DNA from: an archaeon | GTDB lineage: Archaea; Iainarchaeota; Iainarchaeia; Iainarchaeales; JAAZKV01 | Assembly: GCA_041661245.1 (NCBI GenBank) | Contig: JBAZUY010000001.1 | Location: forward strand, 156,355 to 220,354 | Direction of reading: 5' to 3' | Length of the DNA stretch: 64,000 bases | Part shown: piece after piece, positions 1,371 to 60,867 of the stretch | Position numbering within the stretch: the first letter of the stretch is position 1 | Layout: every line of letters begins with the position of its first letter | The notes under the pieces: generated by a model | Database searches by the model: none | What the model saw: only the letters and a program-made list of their open reading frames with translations | Told to the model about the DNA's origin: nothing | Translations under genes and position numbers: made by a program

Positions 1371-2015
1371 TTACTTCCGTCTAAGAGACTTAAGTTTAGT
1401 TACAGTTTTTCTTCCAAAAGCAGCAGTATTTTGTTTCCAAACTTTCGCTCGCTCTCTTGCCCGCACTAATTGACTTGGAGAAACTCTTCCATCTAAAATA
1501 GCAGCTTGTAATTTTTCAAGTCGTTTCCTTTTTCTTACACCCAAAGCAACACCCACAGCCGCACCAGCAACAGCACCAGCCGCGCCAACAGGAATAGCTT
1601 GCTTTGTTAGAGGAATAGTTGGTTTTAAACTTAAATAATCTGGAGCCCCACCCAAAATACGATCCTTACCAATTGAAACTAAATGATTATTTGAATCCCT
1701 AACTGTTCGCCATTGTTTTCCAACAGGAATTTGGGCAGGCTTTTGACCTTTTCGAAATAATTTTTGTGCAATACTCCTTGAATCTCTTTCCTGAACTAGC
1801 ACTCTTGCAACTTCTTCTTGCGCGGATTTACTATGCAAATAAGAATTAACTACATTTTCTTTATAACCTAAAGCCAGACCTGCCGCAATAACTCCAACTA
1901 TTGCACCGCGTTTTGCAGAACCCCAAATACCAGGAATTCTTCTTGCAATTCTATTCGCAGCAGCAATTCTCTCTTGCTCAGTAGTAGGTTCAGCCATTTT
2001 TTTCACCAAAAACAA
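1371..2015 (-). CDS. Hypothetical basic protein with two glycine-zipper segments
   Basis: 214 aa. Segments GAIVGVIAAGLALGY and GAAGAVAGAAVGVALGV; Arg/Lys-rich termini. Confidence 0.45.
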   Translation of the reverse strand: MFLVKKMAEPTTEQERIAAANRIARRIPGIWGSAKRGAIVGVIAAGLALGYKENVVNSYLHSKSAQEEVARVLVQERDSRSIAQKLFRKGQKPAQIPVGKQWRTVRDSNNHLVSIGKDRILGGAPDYLSLKPTIPLTKQAIPVGAAGAVAGAAVGVALGVRKRKRLEKLQAAILDGRVSPSQLVRARERAKVWKQNTAAFGRKTVTKLKSLRRK

Positions 2016-2039
2016 TATTCACATTCAACAAAAATAATT

Positions 2040-2903
2040 TTATTTAATTGAATTAACTATAACTTTGTCTTGTGCGATAAGATTATCCTGAAGTTCAACA
2101 ACCACAGTATTACTATTTGCCCCAGAAGTAAAAGTTATTGAAAAAGGATTAGTCCCAGAAACAGTTGCATTTGTGTTTTTAGTTTGAATAAATTTATCTG
2201 ATTTATCCAAAGTTGCAGAATATTCTCCGGAAAAGTTTGTTCCAACATATTTTACAGTAAATGAATCTCCTTCATTAAATTCTTTATCCTTAGAAGAAGA
2301 AGTCACAACAAAAAAAGGACTTATATTTGGCAAAGCACTTGTAGAATCTTTTGGAGTTGCAATATACTGTGAAGCAGAATCAAAAATTAAAACCCTATAC
2401 AAATTAGTTCCAACTTTCTTTGATTCAAATACTACAGGATTATTTACTTTTGTAATTTTATAATTTGAATAATCATTATCTTTTATTACGAAAAAGGAAA
2501 TTCCAACCTTGCTATCTACTTCCCCTGACAAATCATAACTCACATCCGCAGGATTTTCTACAGGCAAAAAAGTAAATGATTTTAAGTCCCCAACAACACT
2601 AGGCGCTGCAGACCCCGTTGCGGCAGGAGCGCCTTGTGCAACTCCGCTTTGGAGAATGTTCACCTTTGATCCAGTGGATTCAATAACAATTTTTGCATTT
2701 AAAGTTTTCAAATAATACTCAATAGACTGCCCTGAAAGAACATTAAGATTTACTTGAGGAATATTTAACTGCTCTTTCCCGCTTGTCATATCCCCAATTG
2801 TTGATATTTCTTGCCCTGCGGAAAATACAAGTCCAATCAAACAAACAAATAATGCAAAAGAAGCCAAAATAATTAAACTATTTTTAGTAATCATATGAAC
2901 CAT
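2040..2903 (-). CDS. Hypothetical secreted protein (N-terminal signal/TM)
   Basis: 287 aa. N-terminal LIILASFALFVCLIGLVFSA; Ser/Thr/Asn-rich body. Separated by 2 bp from the next gene (operon-like). Confidence 0.5.
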   Translation of the reverse strand: MVHMITKNSLIILASFALFVCLIGLVFSAGQEISTIGDMTSGKEQLNIPQVNLNVLSGQSIEYYLKTLNAKIVIESTGSKVNILQSGVAQGAPAATGSAAPSVVGDLKSFTFLPVENPADVSYDLSGEVDSKVGISFFVIKDNDYSNYKITKVNNPVVFESKKVGTNLYRVLIFDSASQYIATPKDSTSALPNISPFFVVTSSSKDKEFNEGDSFTVKYVGTNFSGEYSATLDKSDKFIQTKNTNATVSGTNPFSITFTSGANSNTVVVELQDNLIAQDKVIVNSIK

Positions 2904-2904
2904 A

Positions 2905-5010
2905 TTAACTCACCACTCTCATTCCTATTGTTGTTCCATCATTCACATACAAATACTTCTTTGCAATATTTGGATATGCTGAATTAAGCACTGCATAATT
3001 AACGTTAACTGAATAGGTCTCATTCTTTGTTGGTTGACCATCAACAAAAACAACTGAGATAATATTTTTCCCATCTTTAATATCTTTTTTAATTTCTTTA
3101 ATTACAGAAATCCCTTTGGAATCAGTCATACTAATAACTGAATTAATCTTACTTAACTCACTATCGTAAAGCCACTTATCTACATTTATTCCTCTCCAAA
3201 CAGTATCATTTCCAGAATAACTAACTCCTGAAATTTCAAACACACCAGGATTTGAAGGGAATCCTGCCGAAGTCAAAAATGACATCGCTGCAGATTTATC
3301 TCCAGATTTATAATAAAGGTTTCTTACAAAATCAGGAAGATTAGGCAACGCAGGGCCCTCCCCAGTCATTACTTTTTCAGTGTACTCTTGATTAAATCTT
3401 GCAAACACCATTAACATGTGAGTCCCATTAGGCAACTCGAAATTATTATATCGGTCATTTTTAATGTCTGAAATAATACACTTTTTATTTTTGAAATATT
3501 CTGCCAAAGCAGCAGGATCTGAATCTGTAGCCACCGCAACTGAGCAACCATTTTGAACCAAAAACTTCTGTTCATTATCCTTCATAGCAGGCAAATAATC
3601 CGCACCCAACCAAATAAGTTCACTAGGATCAAAGAATGCGGTTGTTTCCCAAACAAGATTACCAGCTCCCCCATAAGATTCATCTATTGCACCATCAAAA
3701 GAATCTTTCAGAGCTTTAAATCGTTTAACGTTCAATTCAAATTGCGGATCAACAATGTACTTTGCACCAATTAATTTCCCATCAACACTTGTTGCATCCT
3801 TCACCATTAAACTTGGAGGAGAAACATTGGGCAAACTTGTTAGAGCTAAAACCCCAATAGCAGTATTATTTACAATTGCATGAGGAATACCCAAGTAAAT
3901 ACCTCCAAATTTAAATATTTTTGAAGCACCTTTAACTACACGAGTATTTTTTATTGCTTGATAAGCTCGACTAATAATTCCCGGTTTAGCTGCAGCAGTA
4001 ACTGCAAATGCATTATCTGCATATCTTGCGCCTGTACCCGCAATTTCTACTATTGACCCGCCAACTTCTTCAGTTGCTTTCAACATTTTACCTGCCCCAG
4101 CAACATCATCAATTGTGAAAAGTAATTTTTTTCCATCAGCAAGAACAGTGTAAACAGTTCTACCTGCAGAATCAGTTTTTGTAACTAGTGGACTTCCAGC
4201 TTTGTAAAGTTTTTCTAATTTAGCAGTTATTTCTCCAGTCATCCTAACCTTGTCAGCATTTAATGCAGGATTAGCTACTGCCCCACTATAAGCAGGACTA
4301 TTAACATAACTTCTAACATCATTTGCAACTTGAGAAAGCATTTTGTATGCCCCTCGAGATTCTTTTAGACCTTTTAACTCACCAGATTCTTTAAGAGTAT
4401 TTAACAAAGCCTTGTACGAAGTAGCATTTTCTAATTTTAAAATATTTTTACTTGAAGTCATGGATTTTATTGTCCTACTTGCATCATCAAAGAAAACTCC
4501 TTTAGTTTGTAAAAATGTTCGTTCAGAATCAGTAATAGCATTAACTGGATCTTTAATTCGATCAACAATAGTTGCAAACTTGGAAGCATCATCAGGAGTT
4601 GCCATTAATCCTTTAAAAAATTTTCCAGGTTCCCCAACAAATTTTGAACCAAGCGGCAAACCAGATGCCCCTGCTTTAGATACATCAATTGCAACCGCAG
4701 TATCTGCAAGAACAGTAGCTGCTTGTCCAGTTTCTTGGATTGTATCCAAAAACTTTGTTTCTACTGTGTTTGTTGAATCAAAAGTTTCATCTAAAACAAA
4801 ACAAACTACATTAAAGTCCTTTCCGGTCCCAACGTCCCCATAAAATGGACTCCCCTTATTCTTTAATGCCTCTTCAATTAAACTCAATCTAACTCCTTGA
4901 TCAACATTCATACAATTATCAAAATCATAATCTGCAAAGGTAAAACTAACTAGGAAAAGCAAAAAAGCAAAAAGACAAATAAGTTTACTATTCATTTGTA
5001 ACAACCTCAT
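2905..5010 (-). CDS. Large hypothetical secreted protein
   Basis: 701 aa. N-terminal signal-like KLICLFAFLLFLVSFTFA. Overlaps the upstream gene by 23 nt. No recognisable catalytic motif. Confidence 0.55.
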   Translation of the reverse strand: MRLLQMNSKLICLFAFLLFLVSFTFADYDFDNCMNVDQGVRLSLIEEALKNKGSPFYGDVGTGKDFNVVCFVLDETFDSTNTVETKFLDTIQETGQAATVLADTAVAIDVSKAGASGLPLGSKFVGEPGKFFKGLMATPDDASKFATIVDRIKDPVNAITDSERTFLQTKGVFFDDASRTIKSMTSSKNILKLENATSYKALLNTLKESGELKGLKESRGAYKMLSQVANDVRSYVNSPAYSGAVANPALNADKVRMTGEITAKLEKLYKAGSPLVTKTDSAGRTVYTVLADGKKLLFTIDDVAGAGKMLKATEEVGGSIVEIAGTGARYADNAFAVTAAAKPGIISRAYQAIKNTRVVKGASKIFKFGGIYLGIPHAIVNNTAIGVLALTSLPNVSPPSLMVKDATSVDGKLIGAKYIVDPQFELNVKRFKALKDSFDGAIDESYGGAGNLVWETTAFFDPSELIWLGADYLPAMKDNEQKFLVQNGCSVAVATDSDPAALAEYFKNKKCIISDIKNDRYNNFELPNGTHMLMVFARFNQEYTEKVMTGEGPALPNLPDFVRNLYYKSGDKSAAMSFLTSAGFPSNPGVFEISGVSYSGNDTVWRGINVDKWLYDSELSKINSVISMTDSKGISVIKEIKKDIKDGKNIISVVFVDGQPTKNETYSVNVNYAVLNSAYPNIAKKYLYVNDGTTIGMRVVS

Positions 5011-5584
5011 TTACTGCAAAAGAAGCACAAACTGCAAAAACAGAATCATAATACCGAGTATAAAAATCTGCAGAAGCAACGTATCTTTCGCTGTTTAAAT
5101 CAATAATTAACGTGTTACCTTGCAAATAACTGTTTTTTAGTGCATTTAATCCAGAATACTTTGCACTCAAACTAGACATATTAACATCCAAATCCCCTAA
5201 ATAATCAATATTTTCGCACAAAGTATTTTCATCGGAAGTATACTTATCTAAATCAGCTAAAACAATTTTTTCTTCTTTTTTCAAATCAATTACTCCCAAA
5301 TAGTAAGATTTTAAAGCAGCCGAATTTACATCCCCTATAACTAGATCAATAGAACTAATTCCTTGTCGGAGTTTATCTAACTTAGAAACATCAACCTCGG
5401 CAGAACCCTCGTTTACTAATGAAGAAAAAGTGTATCCATTTTTTGAAAAAACATCCTTTAAAGAAGATTCAAAACTTGTAAGAACTGGTTTTTTCTCAGA
5501 AGGTTGATTGAAATAAAAAAATGCACCTGCAACAATAAGCACTACTAGCACTAGTAACCCCAAGTTTCGCCAGCGTTTATCCAT
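4988..5584 (-). CDS. Hypothetical membrane-anchored protein (first gene of the 5584->594 minus-strand cluster)
   Basis: 198 aa. N-terminal TM LGLLVLVVLIVAGAFFYF. Divergent from the 5734 gene. Confidence 0.5.
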   Translation of the reverse strand: MDKRWRNLGLLVLVVLIVAGAFFYFNQPSEKKPVLTSFESSLKDVFSKNGYTFSSLVNEGSAEVDVSKLDKLRQGISSIDLVIGDVNSAALKSYYLGVIDLKKEEKIVLADLDKYTSDENTLCENIDYLGDLDVNMSSLSAKYSGLNALKNSYLQGNTLIIDLNSERYVASADFYTRYYDSVFAVCASFAVNEVVTNE

Positions 5585-5733
5585 TGAATATCACTTTATT
5601 ACTATTATAGATTAATTGTTCGGGAATATAAATACCTTTGCCCTAAAGCATTTTTCCCAACTTTCACTAATTGTCGAAACTGAGTATGCTACTTTAAATA
5701 TTCTTTTTCTCTATTTATCTTAGTGCTTAATTT

Positions 5734-6513
5734 ATGGCTAAGGTTATTGGAAAAAATATTACTCTTAATTCTGAAGAAACCTCTCTTTTAGGAGAAGGAA
5801 AAGAGTTTGAACTTATTCCAAACAACAAAGGAGTGTTTTTACTAATTGACAAATCACTCTTAAAAGAAAAAGAAGGACAACAAGTTTGTGTAAGTGTTCC
5901 CCAAAAAGAAAATTTGGAAGAAGAAGCACAGCAAGTAATTGGTTTAATTAAACAAGGCAAACTTGGGGACTTAGTTGAAGGAAAGTTTGAACTTACTTTA
6001 AATGAAAAACAAAAAAAAGCCCTACTTGAACTTATTTTGAAAGGAACTGTTTTTGTTTTCAAACTAAACGAAACTTACAAAAAAGGAGTTTATAGAGTAA
6101 AAGAGGAAGAACTTCCAACAGAAAATAACCCTGAAAAGAAAGAATCAGAAAGCATTAATGCCCCTGAGAAACCATTTGACAAATACACTCTTGAAGAAGA
6201 TGGGTTTTTGATAATTAAAGGAAAAGAAAGTGCAGCAAGAGCGTCATTTCAATTTGAAAAAGATATTAAAGAAGGGTTATTAAAAGGAATAAAAAGTTTT
6301 GACGGAAATTATTACTTAATTCAAACAGATTTATTACAAAATTATATTAGCAAAGCAATGGGAGCATTCACAAAAAAATCCACTCAATCCTTAGAAGAGC
6401 TTTCTACAAATTTAAAAGTTTCAAAAATGCTAATGAAAGTAATCTGCGAATTCTTAAAAGACGAAGGCGAAGTAATGGAAAGAAAAAAAGGAATGATAAG
6501 CTATATTAGATAA
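5734..6513 (+). CDS. Hypothetical acidic/Lys-rich cytoplasmic protein
   Basis: 259 aa clean ORF. No motif recognised. Confidence 0.5.
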   Translation: MAKVIGKNITLNSEETSLLGEGKEFELIPNNKGVFLLIDKSLLKEKEGQQVCVSVPQKENLEEEAQQVIGLIKQGKLGDLVEGKFELTLNEKQKKALLELILKGTVFVFKLNETYKKGVYRVKEEELPTENNPEKKESESINAPEKPFDKYTLEEDGFLIIKGKESAARASFQFEKDIKEGLLKGIKSFDGNYYLIQTDLLQNYISKAMGAFTKKSTQSLEELSTNLKVSKMLMKVICEFLKDEGEVMERKKGMISYIR

Positions 6514-6553
6514 AAGAGGATAAAATAAATACCAACAAAACTACTTTTTAAAA

Positions 6554-7540
6554 TTAATTTCCACTTAAAGCATTATTGTATAATGCATTAACATCACTTG
6601 CACTCAAAGCTTTATTCCAAATAGAAATTTCCCCAATTTTTCCTTTGAAATTTACTTTGTTTGGGTCAGCATCAGGCACAATATCCCCAAATCTTATTCC
6701 GGGGCTTGTAGCATTTCCAGTCCCATATGCCCCAGCAACTAATGAAACTCCGTTCAAATAAATACTTTTGAAATTACTACTTTTTGAAGAAACAACTGTT
6801 AAAAGATACCACTTATCTTTTTCCATCAAAACTGAATTAAAAATATCCTTTTCAACGCCACACGAATTATCTATGTTGAAGGAACAAACATAAAATATCA
6901 AATCCTGGTAATAATTTCTTAAAAAAACACCCCCCATATTATTCCCACTAGCCACGTTAGTAATAAACAAACCATAATTTTTTCCATCTCCGGAATCAAC
7001 TAAAGTAAAGCCTGGAGATAACCAAACGGAAATAGTTCTTTCAATACTATTGGGATAAGTATCTAAAGAAAGAACATCATTTTGTCCATCAAATTGCAAA
7101 GCATTCTCACCAAATAAACCAACCACCGGAAGTGGACAAGAATCACCAGAGCAAGTTAAAGAATTCTCGCCAATTGTATCTGCAACTTTCCCCCCAACAA
7201 CATTGTCCATTCTCCAAACAGAATTCAATTCAACAACTAACGGATCTGATTTCAAGTAATAATGATTATTCACCCTATAATACGCCCCACTAGTTTCTTT
7301 GAGTTGATCAAATGAACTATTCGCAGAAGTTATTCCAGAAATACTTTGCTGTTGACCTTGATTCAAAACACTTGTGATTGCAATTGTAACAATTGCTACA
7401 ACCAAAATCGCAGCACCAATAATCAACAAATACTCAATCGCACCCTGTCCACGCAAGTGGGCCTGCGCCCTAGAATTATCAAAAAACATATCCACAATAG
7501 CACTTTTCCACTTAAAAAACTCTTCGAAAAGTCCTTTCAC
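6554..7540 (-). CDS. Archaeal type IV pilin-like protein (class III signal peptide) with LamG/ConA-like C-terminal domain
   Basis: RGQGAIEYLLIIGAAILVVAIV matches the archaeal prepilin (K/R)G-Q..EY hydrophobic-stretch pattern. The true start is probably the internal Met (MFFDNS...). C-terminal ...KGKIGEISIWNKALSASDVNALYNN resembles LamG jelly-roll ends. Confidence 0.6.
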   Translation of the reverse strand: MKGLFEEFFKWKSAIVDMFFDNSRAQAHLRGQGAIEYLLIIGAAILVVAIVTIAITSVLNQGQQQSISGITSANSSFDQLKETSGAYYRVNNHYYLKSDPLVVELNSVWRMDNVVGGKVADTIGENSLTCSGDSCPLPVVGLFGENALQFDGQNDVLSLDTYPNSIERTISVWLSPGFTLVDSGDGKNYGLFITNVASGNNMGGVFLRNYYQDLIFYVCSFNIDNSCGVEKDIFNSVLMEKDKWYLLTVVSSKSSNFKSIYLNGVSLVAGAYGTGNATSPGIRFGDIVPDADPNKVNFKGKIGEISIWNKALSASDVNALYNNALSGN

Positions 7541-44835: not shown

Positions 44836-44919
44836 ACGCAGAGGCCGAGATTCGAACTCAGGTACCCTTTCGGATAACGGGTTAGTAACCCGCCGCATTT
44901 GACCGCTCTGCCACCTCTG
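44836..44919 (-). tRNA. Class II tRNA (Ser-type; discriminator G) with apparent anticodon ACU
   Basis: Reverse complement is GCAGAGG-TG-GCA-GAGCGGTCAAA-TGC-G-GCGGG-TTACTAA-CCCGT-[long variable arm]-CTGAG-TTCGAAT-CTCGG-CCTCTGC-G. The 7-nt loop TTACTAA places ACT at positions 34-36. No CCA encoded. Confidence 0.7.
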
Positions 44920-45108
44920 CTTGAAGACTTTCCGCCCCTTCAGGACCAAGTGAAACTTTTGTTTCACGGGTCAAGCAAAAGCCTTACTTTTGCTTTGACG
45001 TGTGCCCCCTCGCTTCGCTCGGTGACACTGATTTATTACAAATTATGCATTCACAGAGAATTAAAAACTTAACCAAAAACCTAATTCAAAAAAAAAGGTA
45101 GAATTTAT

Positions 45109-48986: not shown

Positions 48987-49307
48987 GTGCAAAAAGAGCA
49001 TGATTCATTATTGATTCAAAATGAATCATTTAAAAGTTCTTCGTTTCAGAGTAATAGTATGAACGTTGTCGTTAAAGGAGTTCCAAAACAAGTACTTGAA
49101 GAAATGCTTGCAAAAGGTTATGCGAGTACTCAATCAGAAGCCATTAGATTAGCTCTCTTTTGGTTTGGACAAAGCAGACTAAATTTAGACGAACTCGCAG
49201 CAAAAAAAATGGACAAACTTTATGCAGACATAAAAAGCGGCAAAAGAAAAACATACACTTTGAAGCAGATGGTACAAAAATACCCTGAATTCAAAGAGCT
49301 GATGTAA
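48987..49307 (+). CDS. Ribbon-helix-helix (CopG/Arc-type) antitoxin
   Basis: GTG start preceded by SD-like AAGGAGGT. NVVVKGVPKQVLEEMLAKGYASTQSEAIRLAL is an RHH pattern. Abuts the toxin gene. Confidence 0.55.
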   Translation: MQKEHDSLLIQNESFKSSSFQSNSMNVVVKGVPKQVLEEMLAKGYASTQSEAIRLALFWFGQSRLNLDELAAKKMDKLYADIKSGKRKTYTLKQMVQKYPEFKELM

Positions 49308-49562
49308 TTGTTTGAAATAATTCCTTCTGACGACTGGTATAAATGGTGGGATAAAGTTCCTCGCGAACAACACCAAAGAATAATCAAAAAAATGCACGAA
49401 CTAAAAGAGGACAAACAATTCAGACACTTAAAATTGGGTTCCCCCCACTTTGTGCTAGAAGCAGGACAATACAGAATACTTTTCATTGAAGAAGAGAAAA
49501 AACGAATACTTATTTTTGTTGGAAATCATAAGGACTATGAGAAATGGATTGGGATGAAATAA
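49308..49562 (+). CDS. RelE/ParE-family toxin
   Basis: 84 aa; TTG start directly after the antitoxin stop. ...FRHLKLGSPHFVLEAGQYRILFIEEEKKRILIFVGNHKDYEKWI fits the RelE/ParE beta-sheet core. Confidence 0.55.
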   Translation: MFEIIPSDDWYKWWDKVPREQHQRIIKKMHELKEDKQFRHLKLGSPHFVLEAGQYRILFIEEEKKRILIFVGNHKDYEKWIGMK

Positions 49563-50540: not shown

Positions 50541-51266
50541 ATGCCGGACGCAACCAAAATAGAGACTATTAGCGAACTTTTGAAAGCCGCCAAATGGCTT
50601 GAGGGAAAAACACTTGCAGAGATTTCAGATAGCATAAAAGACGAAGATTTTGTTCCAAGAGTATCATCAAAAGCTTATGTTGGATACGTTATTGAGAAAG
50701 GGTATTTTCAAATAGAACGAAACAATGATTCTAAACCAGATTTTCCCCAACTCGGAGTTGAATTAAAAACCTGCCCTTTAAAATATAATAAATCAAAAAC
50801 TAAGCTTACTGTTAAAGAACCGCTTTCTTTGAATATAATTAATTATAAGTTAGAATGTCAAAATACTGATTTAACTGAATCATCTCTATTTAAGAAAAAT
50901 AGAACTATTTTGTTTGTATTTTATATTCACGATTTTGAGAAAAAACGCTCAGAATATTTAATTAAATACACCTTTATCTGGCATATGGATAAACAAGTTA
51001 TTTCTGAGTTAAATCCGGATTATCTGAAAATAATCAAAATGATAAACGCAGGAAAAGCACATGAGATTCATCAAGACCAACATAAATATTTGACTATTTG
51101 CCCAAAACACGGAGGCAAATTCAAAGACCCTCTTTGCAAGAAATCAAAGACTACCCAACCATTTAGCAAAGCTCCTGCCGAAGTAAGGGCGTTTAGACTC
51201 AAAAATGCATATGTTGATTTAATAATTTCTCGAGAATTAGAAACAAATCCCTACTGGCCCCGTTAA
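50541..51266 (+). CDS. MutH/Sau3AI-family restriction endonuclease
   Basis: DFPQLGVELKTCPL closely matches the MutH catalytic block DFAALGVELKTIPV (D...E-x-K). Confidence 0.65.
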   Translation: MPDATKIETISELLKAAKWLEGKTLAEISDSIKDEDFVPRVSSKAYVGYVIEKGYFQIERNNDSKPDFPQLGVELKTCPLKYNKSKTKLTVKEPLSLNIINYKLECQNTDLTESSLFKKNRTILFVFYIHDFEKKRSEYLIKYTFIWHMDKQVISELNPDYLKIIKMINAGKAHEIHQDQHKYLTICPKHGGKFKDPLCKKSKTTQPFSKAPAEVRAFRLKNAYVDLIISRELETNPYWPR

Positions 51267-51301: not shown

Positions 51302-52594
51302 CTATTCAGATTCAACAATTTTCAACAAGGTCTTACCAAGTTTTTCTATTACCCCAACAACCAACGCATTGCCCATCATAAAGTATCTCCATCGCAAAGG
51401 CATCCCACAGTCAGTCCATCCTCGAGGGAACTCGTTTAATGCCTCGCATTCTTCAGGAGTCAATAAACGCAACTTATTAGTTTTTGGATCCATTACCACA
51501 TGAGTAGATCGGTTCAAAGTGGCTTCGGAAGTAAGCATTGTCCTTGAAGGTAAGTTAAGATTATCCGGAAAAGCCATTCCCCCCTCGGCATAACTATATT
51601 CATGCCCACTTTTAGATTTACGATTAATCTTTTTAGCACCCTTAAGATAATTCCATTTTTCCAAACTTCCATTTATGAATAATTTATCAGGAACGACAAG
51701 TTTAGTTTCAGTTATTATTTCATGTAACGGTTTTTGCTTAGATAAAACTGGAAGTACCTTAATTGTTTCAACAACCCCTTTGGAATCCATAAACCCCGAA
51801 TTTTTGAAACTCGCTTCAAATTTATCTGAAACTGCTTTCAAATTCCCAAATGAACCTAAATCATAAGTTTCTCTAATGGACAAATCGGATTTTTCAATAT
51901 CAAATTGATTGATAAAAAATCCTTTCGATTTTATTACATCCACGTGAGATAATCCCGAAAGTTTTTTTGCATATGAAGTAGTTTTATTTGCAGCAAAAAT
52001 AAATGTTCGTCTTCTTCTTTGAGGGTGCCCGTACTCCGCGGCATTGATTACTCGCCACTCAACAACGTATCCCAACTCATTAAGGCACTTTAGAATTACT
52101 CCAAAATCCCGACCTCTTTGTTTTGCAGGAGATTTAATCAAACGATCAACATTTTCTAAAAGAACAAATTTAGGTTTTTTGCTTTCAATAATATCTCTTA
52201 TTGACCACCACAATACCCCTTTCTTTCCTTCAATTCCTTTCGCACCAGTTGTTGCAACTGAATAATCCTGACAAGGAAATCCACCAACCAACAAATCGTG
52301 ATTAGGAACATCTTTTTTTACTTTATTGATATCAGCACAAACAACAGTTGATTCTTTATTTGAAATGTGATTCGAGTCAAGTGATTTTTCAAAAAAATCT
52401 TTTCCAAAATAATTTTGAGTATAACATTGGAAAGCATATTGAGTCTGATGACTTTTACCCGGTTCCCATTGATTCGCCCAAATAGTTTGAAACACATCTT
52501 TTGAAGCCCTTTCAAAACCAAGTCGAAATCCACCAACACCGGCAAAAAGTTCTACAACTTTAATTTTACCTTTCATGATGATAAGAGGGATCAA
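51302..52594 (-). CDS. DNA (cytosine-5)-methyltransferase
   Basis: Motif I ELFAGVGGFRLGFE, motif IV GGFPCQDYS, motif VI ENV. Convergent with the endonuclease gene. Confidence 0.85.
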   Translation of the reverse strand: MIPLIIMKGKIKVVELFAGVGGFRLGFERASKDVFQTIWANQWEPGKSHQTQYAFQCYTQNYFGKDFFEKSLDSNHISNKESTVVCADINKVKKDVPNHDLLVGGFPCQDYSVATTGAKGIEGKKGVLWWSIRDIIESKKPKFVLLENVDRLIKSPAKQRGRDFGVILKCLNELGYVVEWRVINAAEYGHPQRRRRTFIFAANKTTSYAKKLSGLSHVDVIKSKGFFINQFDIEKSDLSIRETYDLGSFGNLKAVSDKFEASFKNSGFMDSKGVVETIKVLPVLSKQKPLHEIITETKLVVPDKLFINGSLEKWNYLKGAKKINRKSKSGHEYSYAEGGMAFPDNLNLPSRTMLTSEATLNRSTHVVMDPKTNKLRLLTPEECEALNEFPRGWTDCGMPLRWRYFMMGNALVVGVIEKLGKTLLKIVESE

Positions 52595-53841: not shown

Positions 53842-53870
53842 AAATTTATATAATATGAAAAAATACTGCG

Positions 53871-54701
53871 TTAAGGCCAAGTATACCCTAATTTAAGGTT
53901 TGGAATTTTCCCATCAAGCTCATCTTGAATTTTGTCAATAAATTCTGCAAGATGCTCAATATTTACAACAAAAACTGTTTTTAGGTGTGCACCAACTCTT
54001 GCTTGCTGAGGGAGTGCTAAAGGCTTACCGCCAACATCCATAATTTCCGGAAAATCGTATGCAATGTAGGGCACCTCAGTTATGGGCGCAATCTCAGTTA
54101 ATTCCCCGACTGAATTAAGACCTGCTTTAGAATAATCTATCACGCCTAATTTTGCGTTAGTAACAATAATTGGAACAAAAATTCCCTGAACAAATTTCTT
54201 TTTCAACACATCTATTAAAACACAACGCAATTCTTTAAGCACCTGACGAACATTTTCATTAACCTCTTTATAAGAAACATTTACTTGGCCTCTTGATTTG
54301 CTGAGCCGTTTTTGTTCATTAATTTCAATAACGACATCAGAATAAGTGCCCCTAATAGAAGACCCAGTAGTGTGAACCAAAGGGGCCCAGTCTTTTTTTA
54401 TATGTGCAATATAAAGATGAGCTGGACGCTCAGCAACAATCGGAAAAAGCCAAGTATATGCAGTTCTTTTACATTCAATAATAAAAGTGTAATGCCCGAG
54501 CATATTTGAAACATGACTAATTATGTCTACTTCCACTCTCGAACCATCTTCATCAGAATAAACCTGTCCCCTGTTAAGAGACACTGTACCATGTACACCC
54601 TCTAAAACTTTTACCGCTTTGTCTTCCAAAAGGAGCCCTTTTCTATTAACAACTTTTACCAATTCAGGAAGTTCAGAGCTTAAAAGTAATTCGCCGGGCA
54701 T
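53871..54701 (-). CDS. PD-(D/E)xK nuclease-like protein (second gene of two-gene cassette)
   Basis: EVDIISHV...(17 aa)...FIIECKRT gives D-x(n)-E-C-K spacing typical of the restriction-endonuclease fold; 276 aa. Confidence 0.5.
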   Translation of the reverse strand: MPGELLLSSELPELVKVVNRKGLLLEDKAVKVLEGVHGTVSLNRGQVYSDEDGSRVEVDIISHVSNMLGHYTFIIECKRTAYTWLFPIVAERPAHLYIAHIKKDWAPLVHTTGSSIRGTYSDVVIEINEQKRLSKSRGQVNVSYKEVNENVRQVLKELRCVLIDVLKKKFVQGIFVPIIVTNAKLGVIDYSKAGLNSVGELTEIAPITEVPYIAYDFPEIMDVGGKPLALPQQARVGAHLKTVFVVNIEHLAEFIDKIQDELDGKIPNLKLGYTWP

Positions 54702-54710
54702 TAATTCACC

Positions 54711-55286
54711 TTATTTTTTTAATTTTTCCAAAACAATTTGATTATCTCTCAAAACATCTTTTAGTTCGTTATAACATTGAATACCCAAATCCACAGTTTC
54801 TAAAACTTTGTTTTCAGCATCTCTTTGAAAACGAGAATCGTCAAGATAATCATTTTCGTCAAGAAGATTATAATGCCCAATATTAGAGTGAAGTATTTTA
54901 TTTCTCAATTCTTTAAAACTTTTAATCTTTTTCCTTAAACTTGCTGGAGGAAATACTAAGTTAGAGTGCTTTGGTTTAACGCTTGACCTTTTTAATAAAT
55001 CTAATTTTACCATCCCTGAGAAAAACACAAACTCTTGCCTCAGAGACAACTCAAGAAAATCAATAAGTTCGGCACATTCCTCAGTGGAATAAATTTGACT
55101 TACCACAGAGTCAAGCAAATAATCGACATAAGCGTCAAGTCTTGCAATAACTTCTAGATAATATCCCTTTTTTTTAGGTTCAATAATCTCTTTGTCAAAA
55201 TCAAGTGCAGTCTCTATTTCCCCTTTATCTAATAATCGAGTAGGCATCTTACTTACCTCTCCCTTCGTGCTTTGAAAGTTACCCAC
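54711..55286 (-). CDS. HEPN-like protein (Rx4H motif), first gene of cassette
   Basis: ELRNKILHSNIGHY contains R-x4-H, the HEPN RNase signature. 191 aa; 9 bp upstream of the nuclease-like gene. Confidence 0.4.
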   Translation of the reverse strand: MGNFQSTKGEVSKMPTRLLDKGEIETALDFDKEIIEPKKKGYYLEVIARLDAYVDYLLDSVVSQIYSTEECAELIDFLELSLRQEFVFFSGMVKLDLLKRSSVKPKHSNLVFPPASLRKKIKSFKELRNKILHSNIGHYNLLDENDYLDDSRFQRDAENKVLETVDLGIQCYNELKDVLRDNQIVLEKLKK

Positions 55287-55402
55287 CCACGAGATGTCTT
55301 AAAACGAACCCATCCCTTTTTCTTATCATCCATAACAAAAACAAAATGCGGAACTTTTTATATGCTTATCGAATGAATTAAAAACTAAATAATCAACTGA
55401 CC

Positions 55403-56209
55403 TTATTTTCTACCAATATGCAAAATGTCGTAAACTATTTGAGCCAACCAAAGCATTTTGTAGGATAGGGCATAATGTACTTGATACCAAAAAGATTTAT
55501 TTTTCCAGTTCTTATTAAGTCTCTTTTTAGCTATTAAAACTACTTTAGCATATCTCTTCCTTGACATATTGGCAACAGCATTATACTCCGCAACCCCTTC
55601 ACTGAAGGTTTGAGCAACAAAAAATAGCAAAACAGACATAATCAACGCAAAAGCAAAACAAACTAAACTTATAAATAAAAATTCAAAATTTAATCGTAAA
55701 AAGAATAGAATAATCCCCACAACAATAGCCGCCAATAACTGTATTGAAGATAACCCAAAGATAAATGAGAAAAAGAATAACAGCACTACAGTTAATTTAA
55801 GGAAAATATTTGTCTCAGAATGTCCCAACTCGTGCAATAGAGTGTACTCCAACTCGTCTTTTGATCGAGACAAAACTCGCTTATTTATTATTATTGACCC
55901 ATAAATTGTTTTTTGGCCCCCAAACCAGTCTTTGTCATCTTGGTAAATGTAAACCGTAACATTCTTTCCCGAGGACAAAGAGTAGGTTTTCTTTCTCAAA
56001 AATGCTTTGTCACACTTTTTAAGATAATAAAAAGTTTTTTCATCCATCGAACCAAAAAAAGGCAACAAATATAAGGTATCTAAAATAATCATTCTTATTG
56101 AATCTACCAAACTATGCAAAGACAACCCCATAATTAAAATAGATAATTTTTCTATATGAACCTTTTGGTTCAAAAAAACATTAAAAGCAAAGGGCTTTCG
56201 CCCTTCCAC
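55403..56209 (-). CDS. Membrane zinc metallopeptidase-like protein (HExxH)
   Basis: YTLLHELGHSE followed by several TM helices. Confidence 0.5.
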   Translation of the reverse strand: MEGRKPFAFNVFLNQKVHIEKLSILIMGLSLHSLVDSIRMIILDTLYLLPFFGSMDEKTFYYLKKCDKAFLRKKTYSLSSGKNVTVYIYQDDKDWFGGQKTIYGSIIINKRVLSRSKDELEYTLLHELGHSETNIFLKLTVVLLFFFSFIFGLSSIQLLAAIVVGIILFFLRLNFEFLFISLVCFAFALIMSVLLFFVAQTFSEGVAEYNAVANMSRKRYAKVVLIAKKRLNKNWKNKSFWYQVHYALSYKMLWLAQIVYDILHIGRK

Positions 56210-59250: not shown

Positions 59251-60867
59251 TTAACCAGTTATATTACTTTGAGTGACATTAATATCATATATTTTTCCAA
59301 CTGTTTCCCATCCCCAACTCATTCCTACTCCACCATATGCTAAGGGGTATTCTCCAGCGCCATAAACTGTGTCATTAAAATCCATGGTCTCGTGCCCATT
59401 AACTGTAACTCTTGTTCTGTTTCCATCAACTTCAATCTTAATGTGATTTATTCCAGTATTAGTGTAAGCTGCAATATTTCCTGAAGCCAAACTAACTCCA
59501 ACACCATGTTTAGGATTATCATATCCTGTTCCTTCAATCCAATAATCATGACTTCTTCCAAATCCCCACTCTCCTTTAGTGGAAGATCCAGGGCAATCAG
59601 CCGTTTGTAATGAAAAAGAATACCCTGTGCTCACAGGACTATTCCAACTCTCTTGTCCATTCACTGTTCTAAAAGCAAAAGTTGAACCCCTATAACAAGA
59701 AGGAATCCAATGTGGGTTAAAACTTCCCACTGCTAAATTCTCATAATCTACTTCCATAGTATAACTCGTCCAATTAGTATCTCCAATGTGAGTCATTATA
59801 GTTGCACTTCTTCCATTTCCCCAGTGACCATAATTAAATCCAACTCTTGATGCTGAGACTACATTTAAACTTCCACTCGATTGTCCAAATTGAAATCTCC
59901 ATAAATTCCAATTAGAATCAATTGTGCCTGAGTCAAAATTGTCGGAGAATAATACTGGAGAAATAGGAATGTGATAAGAAATATTTCTATCAGAAGCCGC
60001 ACTTGCAGAATTAACTGCAGTGTAACAAGTTACATTCCAATTATAATCCCCCTCGCTTGGAAGAGAATAATTAATTGAATAATTTGTATCAGAAAGAAGA
60101 AGAGAATTAATCAAAATATGATTTGCATCAAGATTAGAATTTATTTTCAAATTACAATCCAAAACATTCGCATCTAAACTTGCAACAGCAAAGTTAAACT
60201 CAACAATTCCATTCACAGTAATATTCCCATCAACAGGACTTAGCAGACTAACTATTGGAGGTCTAATTATTGGAACTTCAATTGGAACTACCACATTTTC
60301 ATCAGCCAAATCTAACGCACTAATACAAGTTATTGTTGTACTTATTTTGTAATTGTGATCAATTCCATATTCGCTAGTTCCATAAAAAATTATTTCACAA
60401 GTTTTTGTTTGGCCAACAAAACCATCACAACTACAAGCACTCCCCAAATCATCTAACAAAAATCCATCTTTTCCAAATGAAGACCAATCAGTATCTCTGG
60501 TGTTTACTTCTTTACCATCAACATTTATTCCTGTAATAGTCAAACCTGCGCCAGTGTTATTTCCCGCAGCAATATATCCTCGCCCATTAACATCAATTAC
60601 TGCCTCACTAATACTAATGGCGCCGCTAGTCTGAGAAATTTGCCCAGAAGCAGAAGAAATAGTACCCGCAGAACCAGAACCTGTTGAAGAAATCAATCCA
60701 ACAACAACTAAACTCAAAACAACAACAACCCCAATAATCACCAAATACTCAACAGTACCCTGTGCTGATGCCTGCGCCTCAAAAGGTGCACAGGACAGGC
60801 CTTGTCCTAAAGAGAGGGCTCTCCCCCTACAGGAGGGCTTGGAAGTAGAAACTGACTTACTTTTCAT
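59251..60867 (-). CDS. Large archaeal type IV pilin-like protein (class III signal peptide) with ConA/LamG-like domain
   Basis: AQGTVEYLVIIGVVVVLSLVVVGLI prepilin-like segment; Ser/Thr/Asn-rich beta body. Confidence 0.55.
   Translation of the reverse strand: MKSKSVSTSKPSCRGRALSLGQGLSCAPFEAQASAQGTVEYLVIIGVVVVLSLVVVGLISSTGSGSAGTISSASGQISQTSGAISISEAVIDVNGRGYIAAGNNTGAGLTITGINVDGKEVNTRDTDWSSFGKDGFLLDDLGSACSCDGFVGQTKTCEIIFYGTSEYGIDHNYKISTTITCISALDLADENVVVPIEVPIIRPPIVSLLSPVDGNITVNGIVEFNFAVASLDANVLDCNLKINSNLDANHILINSLLLSDTNYSINYSLPSEGDYNWNVTCYTAVNSASAASDRNISYHIPISPVLFSDNFDSGTIDSNWNLWRFQFGQSSGSLNVVSASRVGFNYGHWGNGRSATIMTHIGDTNWTSYTMEVDYENLAVGSFNPHWIPSCYRGSTFAFRTVNGQESWNSPVSTGYSFSLQTADCPGSSTKGEWGFGRSHDYWIEGTGYDNPKHGVGVSLASGNIAAYTNTGINHIKIEVDGNRTRVTVNGHETMDFNDTVYGAGEYPLAYGGVGMSWGWETVGKIYDINVTQSNITG

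Follow-up and report, generated by a model that had tools for sequence, protein, structure and literature searches.

Proteins of the HEPN superfamily adopt a four-helix up-down bundle with an insert between helices 2 and 3, and carry an Rx4-6H motif that extends from the end of helix 3 into the next loop, with a polar residue after the arginine (PMC3710099). HEPN RNases are frequent as toxins of toxin-antitoxin (TA) systems (PMC3710099; PMC4621449). In addition, no fewer than 16 HEPN clades are associated with restriction-modification (R-M), with repeated fusions to DNases of the restriction endonuclease (REase) fold and to SF-I helicases, and for R-M-linked HEPN proteins Anantharaman et al. 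(2013) proposed a PrrC-like second-line model (PMC3710099). The described systems to which we compared the present locus include the solo HEPN clades associated with R-M (among them DUF4145, AbiU2, the AbiJ solos and ApeA; PMC3710099), the HepT (DUF86) toxin of the type VII TA system HepT-MNT, and PrrC-EcoprrI, in which an anticodon nuclease is embedded in a type Ic R-M operon.

Within the 64,000-nt stretch of archaeal DNA analyzed here (the window), two minus-strand genes, referred to as A and B, are both labelled 'hypothetical protein' by NCBI and stem from a 788-kb contig of an 'archaeon' metagenome-assembled genome (MAG). The original prediction had described them as co-directional and 9 bp apart, and this was confirmed (Table 1): the TAA stop codon of A occupies positions 54713-54711 and the ATG of B lies at 54701, with the sequence ELRNKILH (R128...H133) being present in A and EVDII...IIECKRT (D59, E76, K78) in B. 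Coding sequence fills 88% of the compact window, whose GC content is uniform (0.30-0.38 throughout); of the co-directional pairs it contains, the 23% with the smallest gaps include A/B. Each gene possesses its own Shine-Dalgarno (SD) sequence, and reading the sequence for a T-run terminator between A and B revealed none.

Table 1. Features of the A/B locus, in window coordinates
Feature	Position	Strand	Description
T-run TATTTTTTC	53855..53866	(-)	Just past the B stop; candidate archaeal oligo-T terminator
Gene B	53871..54701	(-)	276 aa; NCBI WCW44_04080; unnamed PD-(D/E)xK nuclease family
Codons of predicted catalytic residues of B: E26, E57/D59, E76-C-K78	54468..54626	(-)	Conservation in 13 family sequences
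9-nt A/B spacer GGTGAATTA	54702..54710	(-)	Contains SD for B (GGTGA); read from the sequence
Gene A	54711..55247	(-)	178 aa; NCBI WCW44_04075; unnamed HEPN-like family
Gene A, long form	54711-55286	(-)	191 aa from GTG 55286
Codons R128-N-K-I-L-H133 of A (RNx3H)	54888..54905	(-)	End of predicted helix 115-132
Micro-ORF MDDKKKGWVRFKTSRGWVTFKARRER	55253..55333	(-)	26 aa, basic, beta-hairpin-like; stop 5 nt before the A ATG
TATA-like element ATATAAAAAG	55354..55363	(-)	Candidate archaeal promoter; micro-ORF ATG ~25 nt downstream

Two details of the earlier description held only in part. The 191-aa reading frame given for A is real, and residue numbering of A follows this form, but the true product most likely starts at ATG 55247 (M14), since this codon is preceded by an SD sequence (GGGAGAGG; 55263-55256), the alignments of the best homologs begin at M14, and the NCBI annotation carries the shorter form. 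As for the claimed neighbours, the R-M system is solid, with a C5-methylase (E = 5e-61) and a MutH/Sau3AI-like REase (E = 3e-23), whereas the calls for a RelE-like protein (Gp49; E = 0.05) and a HExxH peptidase (SprT/M48; E = 0.03-0.13) are weak. The nearest R-M genes are 1.3 kb off A/B and in a different transcription unit. The proposed setting in a defence island is supported both in the window and around A homologs elsewhere.

The suggestion that A is HEPN-like had been derived from its Rx4H motif, which by itself is weak evidence and becomes meaningful through conservation in a family: such a motif arose by chance in 13% of shuffles of A and was present in 17 of the 54 long ORFs of the window, the RNx3H version being rarer (0.65% of shuffles of A). 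A word-indexed search returned zero relatives of A; an exhaustive HMMER search yielded 36 at E ≤ 1e-3, to which a profile search added ~20. In the alignment of the 36 homologs (21-48% identity), only the columns F124, R128 and H133 are invariant, while at least 90% of the sequences share K125, N129, P37, E45, D51 and D55, N129 providing the polar residue directly after the arginine. R128 and H133 are also invariant in a 22-sequence alignment of a distant clade of the family. Invariance of F124, R128 and H133 together with conservation of K125 and N129 thus defines FKxxRNxxxH as the signature of the A family, and the R128/H133 pair originally singled out forms the core of its conservation.

Profile comparisons pointed in the same direction at sub-threshold scores. 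When the 36 members were scanned against Pfam, the three families matched by the largest numbers of members were all HEPN families (HepT-like, 7 members; HEPN_Cthe2314, 4 members, best E = 1.9e-4; RiboL-PSP-HEPN, 3 members), and nearly every other family was matched by a single member. A scan against NCBIfam likewise gave HepT_toxin for 7 of the 36 (best E = 1.1e-4) and one member each for other families. The A consensus aligned to HepT-like with E = 4.3e-4, the match stopping at the motif; with 20.4 bits (cutoff 23.5), this was also the best score of the family against the curated HEPN models, none of which was matched above its cutoff. The window protein A alone matched no curated HEPN family, and direct scans of A and B against Pfam, NCBIfam, PHROG and PADLOC gave nothing meaningful. 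Sequence searches of the PDB returned no hit for A and chance matches only (S13/Mx1) for the A-family profile, and hhalign comparison of the A family with the single HEPN-like proteins of loci L009 (DUF4145) and L014 resulted in probabilities below 1%. A single-sequence structure model of low confidence (pLDDT 57, pTM 0.55) is all-helical, comprising helices 42-63, 68-83, 115-132 and 151-190 with residues 84-114 disordered, and places the motif (128-133) at the end of helix 115-132, followed by a loop and the long last helix. If this model is right, its layout would be the one described for HEPN in PMC3710099. Taken together, A very probably belongs to the HEPN superfamily and, judging from what is known of this superfamily, whose RNases cleave without metal and leave a 2',3'-cyclic phosphate, is predicted to be a metal-independent RNase using R128, N129 and H133.

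For B, three database homologs and ten metagenomic loci provided relatives. In the resulting 13-sequence alignment, E26, E57, D59 and K78 are found in every sequence covering them, and C77, R79, T80, Y82, W84, S143, Q153, P177, T181 and N182 are invariant as well. E76 is kept in 12 sequences and replaced by D in one, a swap tolerated by the (D/E)xK motif. In an AF2 model of low confidence built from four sequences (pLDDT 50, pTM 0.61), helix 8-34 leads into four strands (39-49, 55-65, 69-78 and 83-89); beyond ~90-140, which is disordered, come helix 147-169 and strand 174-181. This alpha-beta-beta-beta-beta...alpha-beta order resembles the alpha-beta-beta-beta-alpha-beta core fold of PD-(D/E)xK nucleases, in which an E on helix 1 often lies upstream of the D...(D/E)xK motif; here helix 1 carries E26, strand 2 carries D59, and strand 3 carries both E76 and K78. 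According to the model, the nuclease core runs to ~181, with an insertion at ~90-140. The 170 C-terminal residues initially described as being of unknown function were therefore an overestimate: what is left unassigned is the stretch of ~90 residues at about 185-276, which is conserved (TNAKLG, KTVFIVN) and has no match.

Similar to A, the B family scored below the thresholds of known families. Its consensus aligned to NERD with E = 2.8e-3 (18.6 bits; cutoff 22.1) and to the nuclease part of the PADLOC model CARF_PDDEXK with E = 1.6e-4; none of the curated PD-(D/E)xK models (NERD, Card1_endonuc, Hjc etc.) was reached above its cutoff, and window protein B alone was unmatched. Foldseek comparison, a check that had been proposed at the outset and that was run on the B model, found nothing in the PDB at E ≤ 1e-3, the best hit being an integrative YdjA-YdiS model (E = 0.02), and a PDB sequence search with the B-family profile gave a chance match only (Mnd1). 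Nonetheless, the PD-(D/E)xK reading of B is supported, the D, E and K residues put forward earlier being those conserved across the family. We have little doubt that B has this fold, and from the conserved residues we predict a Mg2+-dependent DNA endonuclease acting via E26, D59, E76 and K78.

To ask whether A and B form a pair, both family HMMs were run on all ORFs of 30 aa or more from 28 loci, a sample with 11 different loci for A and 13 for B, several of them on short contigs. The two genes occurred together only in the window: 0 of the 12 other B loci contain A, and 0 of the 10 other A loci contain B. Downstream of A, the three other loci of its close clade (39-47% identity) carry unrelated genes, namely a 2-TM protein or a convergent SWIM-like gene, or run into the contig end, and none has B. 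Hence, a dedicated or conserved two-gene system made up of A and B is not supported. The original prediction had treated the cassette as one module and had named in advance homologs that never co-occur as an observation refuting it; outside the window, this is what we found at the loci sampled.

Instead, A homologs were repeatedly encountered beside enzymes that target DNA. At one locus (L007/L008), the order is hsdM-A-hsdS-SIR2, the sole case of an A homolog between hsdM and hsdS. Elsewhere, A comes after an Eco57I-type R-M system and a UvrD/PDDEXK_1 fusion (L004/L005), shares 4 nt with the end of gajB in a genuine Gabija pair (GajA, E = 7e-112; GajB, E = 6e-103) that lies beside hsdR (L021), overlaps, again by 4 nt, the end of the gene for an NPPY-containing type IIG-like enzyme of 914 aa (L024), or stands behind a NUMOD3/DUF559/Vsr nuclease gene in a Woesearchaeota MAG (L006). 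At two further loci, it follows the gene for a 1361-aa unknown protein (L022) and resides inside a D5-primase element (L023). A is thus a mobile accessory gene, repeatedly set next to DNA-targeting defence enzymes.

B homologs, in turn, were found in an island of integrase, NERD and D5-primase genes of an Aenigmarchaeota MAG, with an 88-aa wHTH-like gene upstream; adjoining a cluster of HNH, methylase and PDDEXK_1 (Cas4-like) genes (L016); among other small nuclease-like genes (L019); and between glmS-type housekeeping genes and the arginyl-tRNA synthetase gene (L017). B is normally a solitary nuclease gene in varied contexts, in variable or mobile regions. From the contexts of both sets of homologs, it follows that A is a portable accessory and B a solitary gene, and that their adjacency in the window is one case of the general theme. 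Both families are patchy and extremely rare (about 60 members for A and about 14 for B among billions of proteins), and they are apparently confined to DPANN-type contigs, archaeal or metagenomic (Aenigmarchaeota, Woesearchaeota and 'archaeon' MAGs). Viral contigs contained no B-family member, phage and plasmid collections no relative of A or B, and a locus search with a tighter A alignment added one new genome locus and zero viral loci.

Inspection of the close clade revealed another companion of A. Gene callers overlook genes as small as 26 aa, and directly ahead of A a homologous micro-ORF is present in 4/4 close-clade loci (window, L009/L010, L026/L027 and L028), encoding a basic peptide of 26-31 aa with the motif VRFxTSxGWVxF and ending 3-15 nt before the A start. 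The peptide reads MADRKPRRRNTEIVRFETSRGWVSFRARKER at L009 and MTPMARQAKKKTKVRARTSYGWVLFNPQPE at L028; at L026, where it was called as an 83-aa gene, it ends in MAKFKTVRFKSSDGWIVFKAKVKKGG. Across the 15-codon core, in which V, R, S, G, W and F never vary, differences distribute over the three codon positions as 33/24/60, with 29 synonymous changes at conserved residues. The micro-ORF is accordingly conserved at the peptide level. RNA structure does not explain this conservation, as the leader has no Rfam match and a fold z-score of -0.18, and an RNA element was rejected on these grounds. The motif, though derived from the same sequences, is unique in the 0.5 million six-frame residues of the examined loci, and the peptide has no Pfam or PDB relative. 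The loci of the distant clade lack the micro-ORF. Since the micro-ORF accompanies A at all four close-clade loci and B does so in the window only, the conserved companion of A in this clade is the micro-protein and not B.

Archaeal TATA-like promoters ~25 nt ahead of a start codon fit a leaderless or short-leader transcript. The TATA-like element of the window would fit a leaderless archaeal transcript starting at the micro-ORF, and TATA-like elements are also present 25-30 nt upstream of the micro-ORF at L028 and L026.

How does the locus compare with described systems? Like the R-M-associated solo HEPN clades, A is small, has an R-polar-x3-H motif and occurs patchily, in defence islands and in or next to R-M operons, REase-fold DNases and SF-I/UvrD helicases. 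Unlike those clades, its members lie below every curated HEPN threshold and have so far been seen in DPANN-type archaeal or metagenomic contigs; moreover, we found no description of an upstream micro-ORF such as that of the close A clade for the R-M-associated clades. HepT, the best-scoring curated family, is about as large as A and likewise carries an RNx3H-type motif, located towards the end of its third core helix. The HepT motif usually continues as RX4HXY, in contrast to the RNxxxHSxxG of A. Membership in HepT-MNT was rejected, given that no MNT nucleotidyltransferase lies beside A in the window or at the A-family loci examined and that scores are below cutoffs. PrrC-EcoprrI offers a positional parallel, the A homolog at L007 being placed between hsdM and hsdS exactly like prrC, and it is from this system that the logic of a latent HEPN RNase behind a first line of defence is borrowed. 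A PrrC-type identity was dismissed, however, as A is a 178-aa single-domain protein without the ABC-ATPase N-domain and its neighbour in the window is B rather than an R-M subunit.

With respect to B, NERD and Card1/Can2-type nucleases differ from B, which carries ~50 inserted residues behind strand 4 and, at its C-terminus, a conserved region of ~90 residues, and its scores against them are sub-threshold. We rejected a CARF-nuclease (Can2/Card1) identity: B has no CARF domain, its nuclease core begins at the N-terminus, and its matches to PADLOC CARF_PDDEXK cover only the nuclease part of that model (positions 228-295 of 361). McrBC was rejected as well, since B has no McrB partner and resembles the McrC nuclease domain at the level of the fold only, and so was Shedu, since PADLOC gave no DUF4263/SduA HMM match and the likeness to SduA is again confined to the fold. 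The statement that no known named system matches the pair stands: PADLOC-DB v2 contained zero matches for A or B, and for the 36 A homologs only seven unrelated single matches. The novelty of the pair was overestimated all the same, because the association of HEPN proteins with REase-fold DNases, helicases and R-M is already common and published (PMC3710099).

We lean towards the reading that the window holds one three-cistron unit, located in a small, variable, defence-type island of a DPANN-like archaeon and encoding a latent HEPN RNase (A) and a nuclease (B), and that no dedicated A+B system exists. Driven by the TATA-like element, a single transcript (53871-55333, minus strand) would cover the micro-ORF, A and B and end at the T-run, its cistrons specifying a basic 26-aa micro-protein, a small protein of probable HEPN superfamily membership and a putative PD-(D/E)xK nuclease. 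The A family would represent a portable accessory module, which in the distant clade is found within operons for DNA-targeting defence or directly behind them (type I R-M, type IIG R-M, Gabija GajA/GajB, the UvrD-PD-(D/E)xK fusion or the Vsr-like nuclease). Purely by analogy to PrrC/EcoprrI and the R-M-linked HEPN clades, A may act as a latent second-line RNase of the abortive-infection or toxin type, restrained by its neighbour and/or the micro-protein and freed once the first-line, DNA-targeting defence has been overcome. In the window, B would by chance fill the slot of the DNA-targeting partner beside A. The analysis shows the ORFs, the motif conservation within each family, the similarity of B at the fold level, the gene contexts, the lack of co-occurrence and the peptide-level conservation of the micro-ORF, and we infer from these the enzymatic activities, regulation, co-transcription and defence role of the unit. 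Several observations count against this reading: the scores of both families fall short of every curated cutoff, both structure models are of low confidence and Foldseek gave nothing significant for B, the nearest R-M genes belong to another transcription unit, and gene order is reversed, with A upstream of B in the window and downstream of its partner in the distant clade. The set of sampled A and B loci is small as well. That A should further be a previously unrecognised DPANN HEPN RNase add-on for many DNA-targeting defences (R-M, Gabija, helicase-nucleases and B), with a free-standing form controlled by a new kind of partner, a translationally coupled basic beta-hairpin antitoxin or RNA-mimic of 26-31 aa, and that B should found a family of DNase effectors whose C-terminal domain is novel, is a possibility we consider unlikely.

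Other readings of the locus fit parts of the same evidence. A dedicated two-component defence or toxin system, in which A and B act obligately together, for instance as RNase sensor/effector and DNase effector, would agree with their co-directional arrangement, the tight gap, whose spacer holds an SD and lacks a terminator, the defence-type island and the lack of a match to any known system; yet the mutual absence of A and B from each other's remaining loci, the unrelated genes downstream of close-clade A and the lone B among housekeeping genes at L017 make it improbable. A self-contained TA-like pair formed by the micro-protein and A, with B as a bystander such as an orphan restriction-type or mobile-element nuclease, accounts for the peptide-level conservation directly upstream of A in the close clade, gains from the abundance of HEPN RNases among TA toxins and agrees with the solitary state of B elsewhere. 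This arrangement is doubtful too, considering that the distant A clade does without the micro-ORF, that a highly basic 26-aa peptide is atypical for an antitoxin and more like a nucleic-acid binder, and that translation of the micro-ORF is only predicted and its peptide has no known relative. Finally, A could be a non-catalytic helical protein that binds nucleic acids or regulates, and B a Hjc/NucS-type housekeeping nuclease for repair or recombination. Such a role outside defence is highly improbable: the invariant residues are the catalytic ones, the genes sit in R-M, Gabija, integrase and D5-primase islands, and with so few, patchily distributed members among billions of proteins neither family shows a housekeeping pattern.

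A and B are new families inside two well-known superfamilies, joined in a known type of association. The defence systems of DPANN archaea are barely charted, and A and B had been annotated only as hypothetical proteins, with no curated family; assigning them to superfamilies and naming their catalytic residues turns them into two small, readily testable enzymes. There is also a lesson in the locus, in that tight adjacency in a compact genome hinted at a system and comparative context revealed genes that travel independently. The micro-ORF conserved ahead of the HEPN gene is the more original lead and might represent a regulator or antitoxin of a new type, acting on a HEPN RNase.

The basic micro-ORF that adjoins gene A, the HEPN-like member of the cassette, encodes a peptide without known relatives, and upstream of the A homologs of the close clade (loci L009/L010, L026/L027 and L028) it is conserved at peptide level. 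Further upstream in the window, the HELGH membrane protein gave only weak metalloprotease matches throughout (E = 0.002-0.13), and a T-run and a TATA-like element stand between its gene and the downstream cassette. The endonuclease and methylase genes make up a convergent type II R-M pair. The two abutting small genes look like an antitoxin and a RelE/ParE-type toxin, with a weak family match (Gp49/HigB-like, E = 0.05).

Features of the window and of loci carrying homologs of A or B (the PD-(D/E)xK nuclease-like protein)
Feature	Location	Strand	Matches and remarks
Micro-ORF, 26 aa, basic, unannotated	window 55253-55333	-	peptide MDDKKKGWVRFKTSRGWVTFKARRER; adjoins gene A upstream
Multi-pass membrane protein, 268 aa, HELGH motif	window 55403-56209	-	SprT/M48 and PHROG metalloprotease
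MutH/Sau3AI-like restriction endonuclease	window 50541-51266	+	Pfam MutH E=3e-23; PADLOC REase_II E=2e-37
C5-cytosine methylase	window 51302-52594	-	E=5e-61; PADLOC MTase_II E=3e-155
Two abutting genes, 106 aa and 84 aa	window 48987-49562	+	antitoxin/RelE-ParE-type toxin-like pair
tRNA-Ser, anticodon ACT	window 44837-44920	-	ARAGORN call
538-aa protein	window 59251-60867	-	N-terminus contains …QGTVEYLVIIGVVVVLSLVV…
Small helical protein, ...VKDTRNKVAHW	L014 8209-8730	+	RiboL-PSP-HEPN E=0.009, weak
Two small PD-(D/E)xK-like genes	L019 4006-4485; 7017-7535	-; +	either side of B homolog
DUF4145-type HEPN protein, 229 aa	L009 33-722	+	Pfam E=7.7e-5, at threshold
Type I R-M operon, A-family gene between hsdM and hsdS	L007 4479-10726		likewise in L008
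Complete Gabija pair	L021, within 1923-7255		GajA E=7e-112; GajB E=6e-103

Elsewhere in the window, the A at position 34 of the tRNA-Ser(ACT) would be unusual and may point to an erroneous call, or to modification or editing of the tRNA. The N-terminus of the 538-aa protein resembles the class III signal peptides of archaeal pilins and archaellins, which fits the view that the window is archaeal.

Among the B loci, the VKDTRNKVAHW protein of L014 is encoded 2.5 kb downstream of the B homolog; it is distinct from A and was not detected by the A-family HMM. At L019, the presence of two further PD-(D/E)xK-like genes flanking the B homolog, one of them with DIDILA...IIECK and weak NERD, Card1 and Hjc matches, suggests an island rich in nucleases.

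Two distinct HEPN-like genes are adjacent in L009, where the DUF4145-type gene precedes the closest A homolog. In the distant A clade (alignment A3; e.g. L024 5001-5585), a C-terminal tail, YYFSxxFYxxNPRGK...FPK, is conserved that is missing from the window A protein and its close relatives. The A-family gene in the type I R-M operon of L007/L008 matches the position of prrC in EcoprrI; next come a SIR2-like gene and a gene of >590 aa, with AbiEi/AbiEii and HicB-like genes close by. In L021, the Gabija pair, which adjoins a type I hsdR and a HARE-HTH gene, is followed by an A-family HEPN-like gene, overlapping gajB by 4 nt, and then by the gene of a 548-aa HRDC/ExoVII-large-subunit-like protein; this arrangement may represent an extended Gabija variant.
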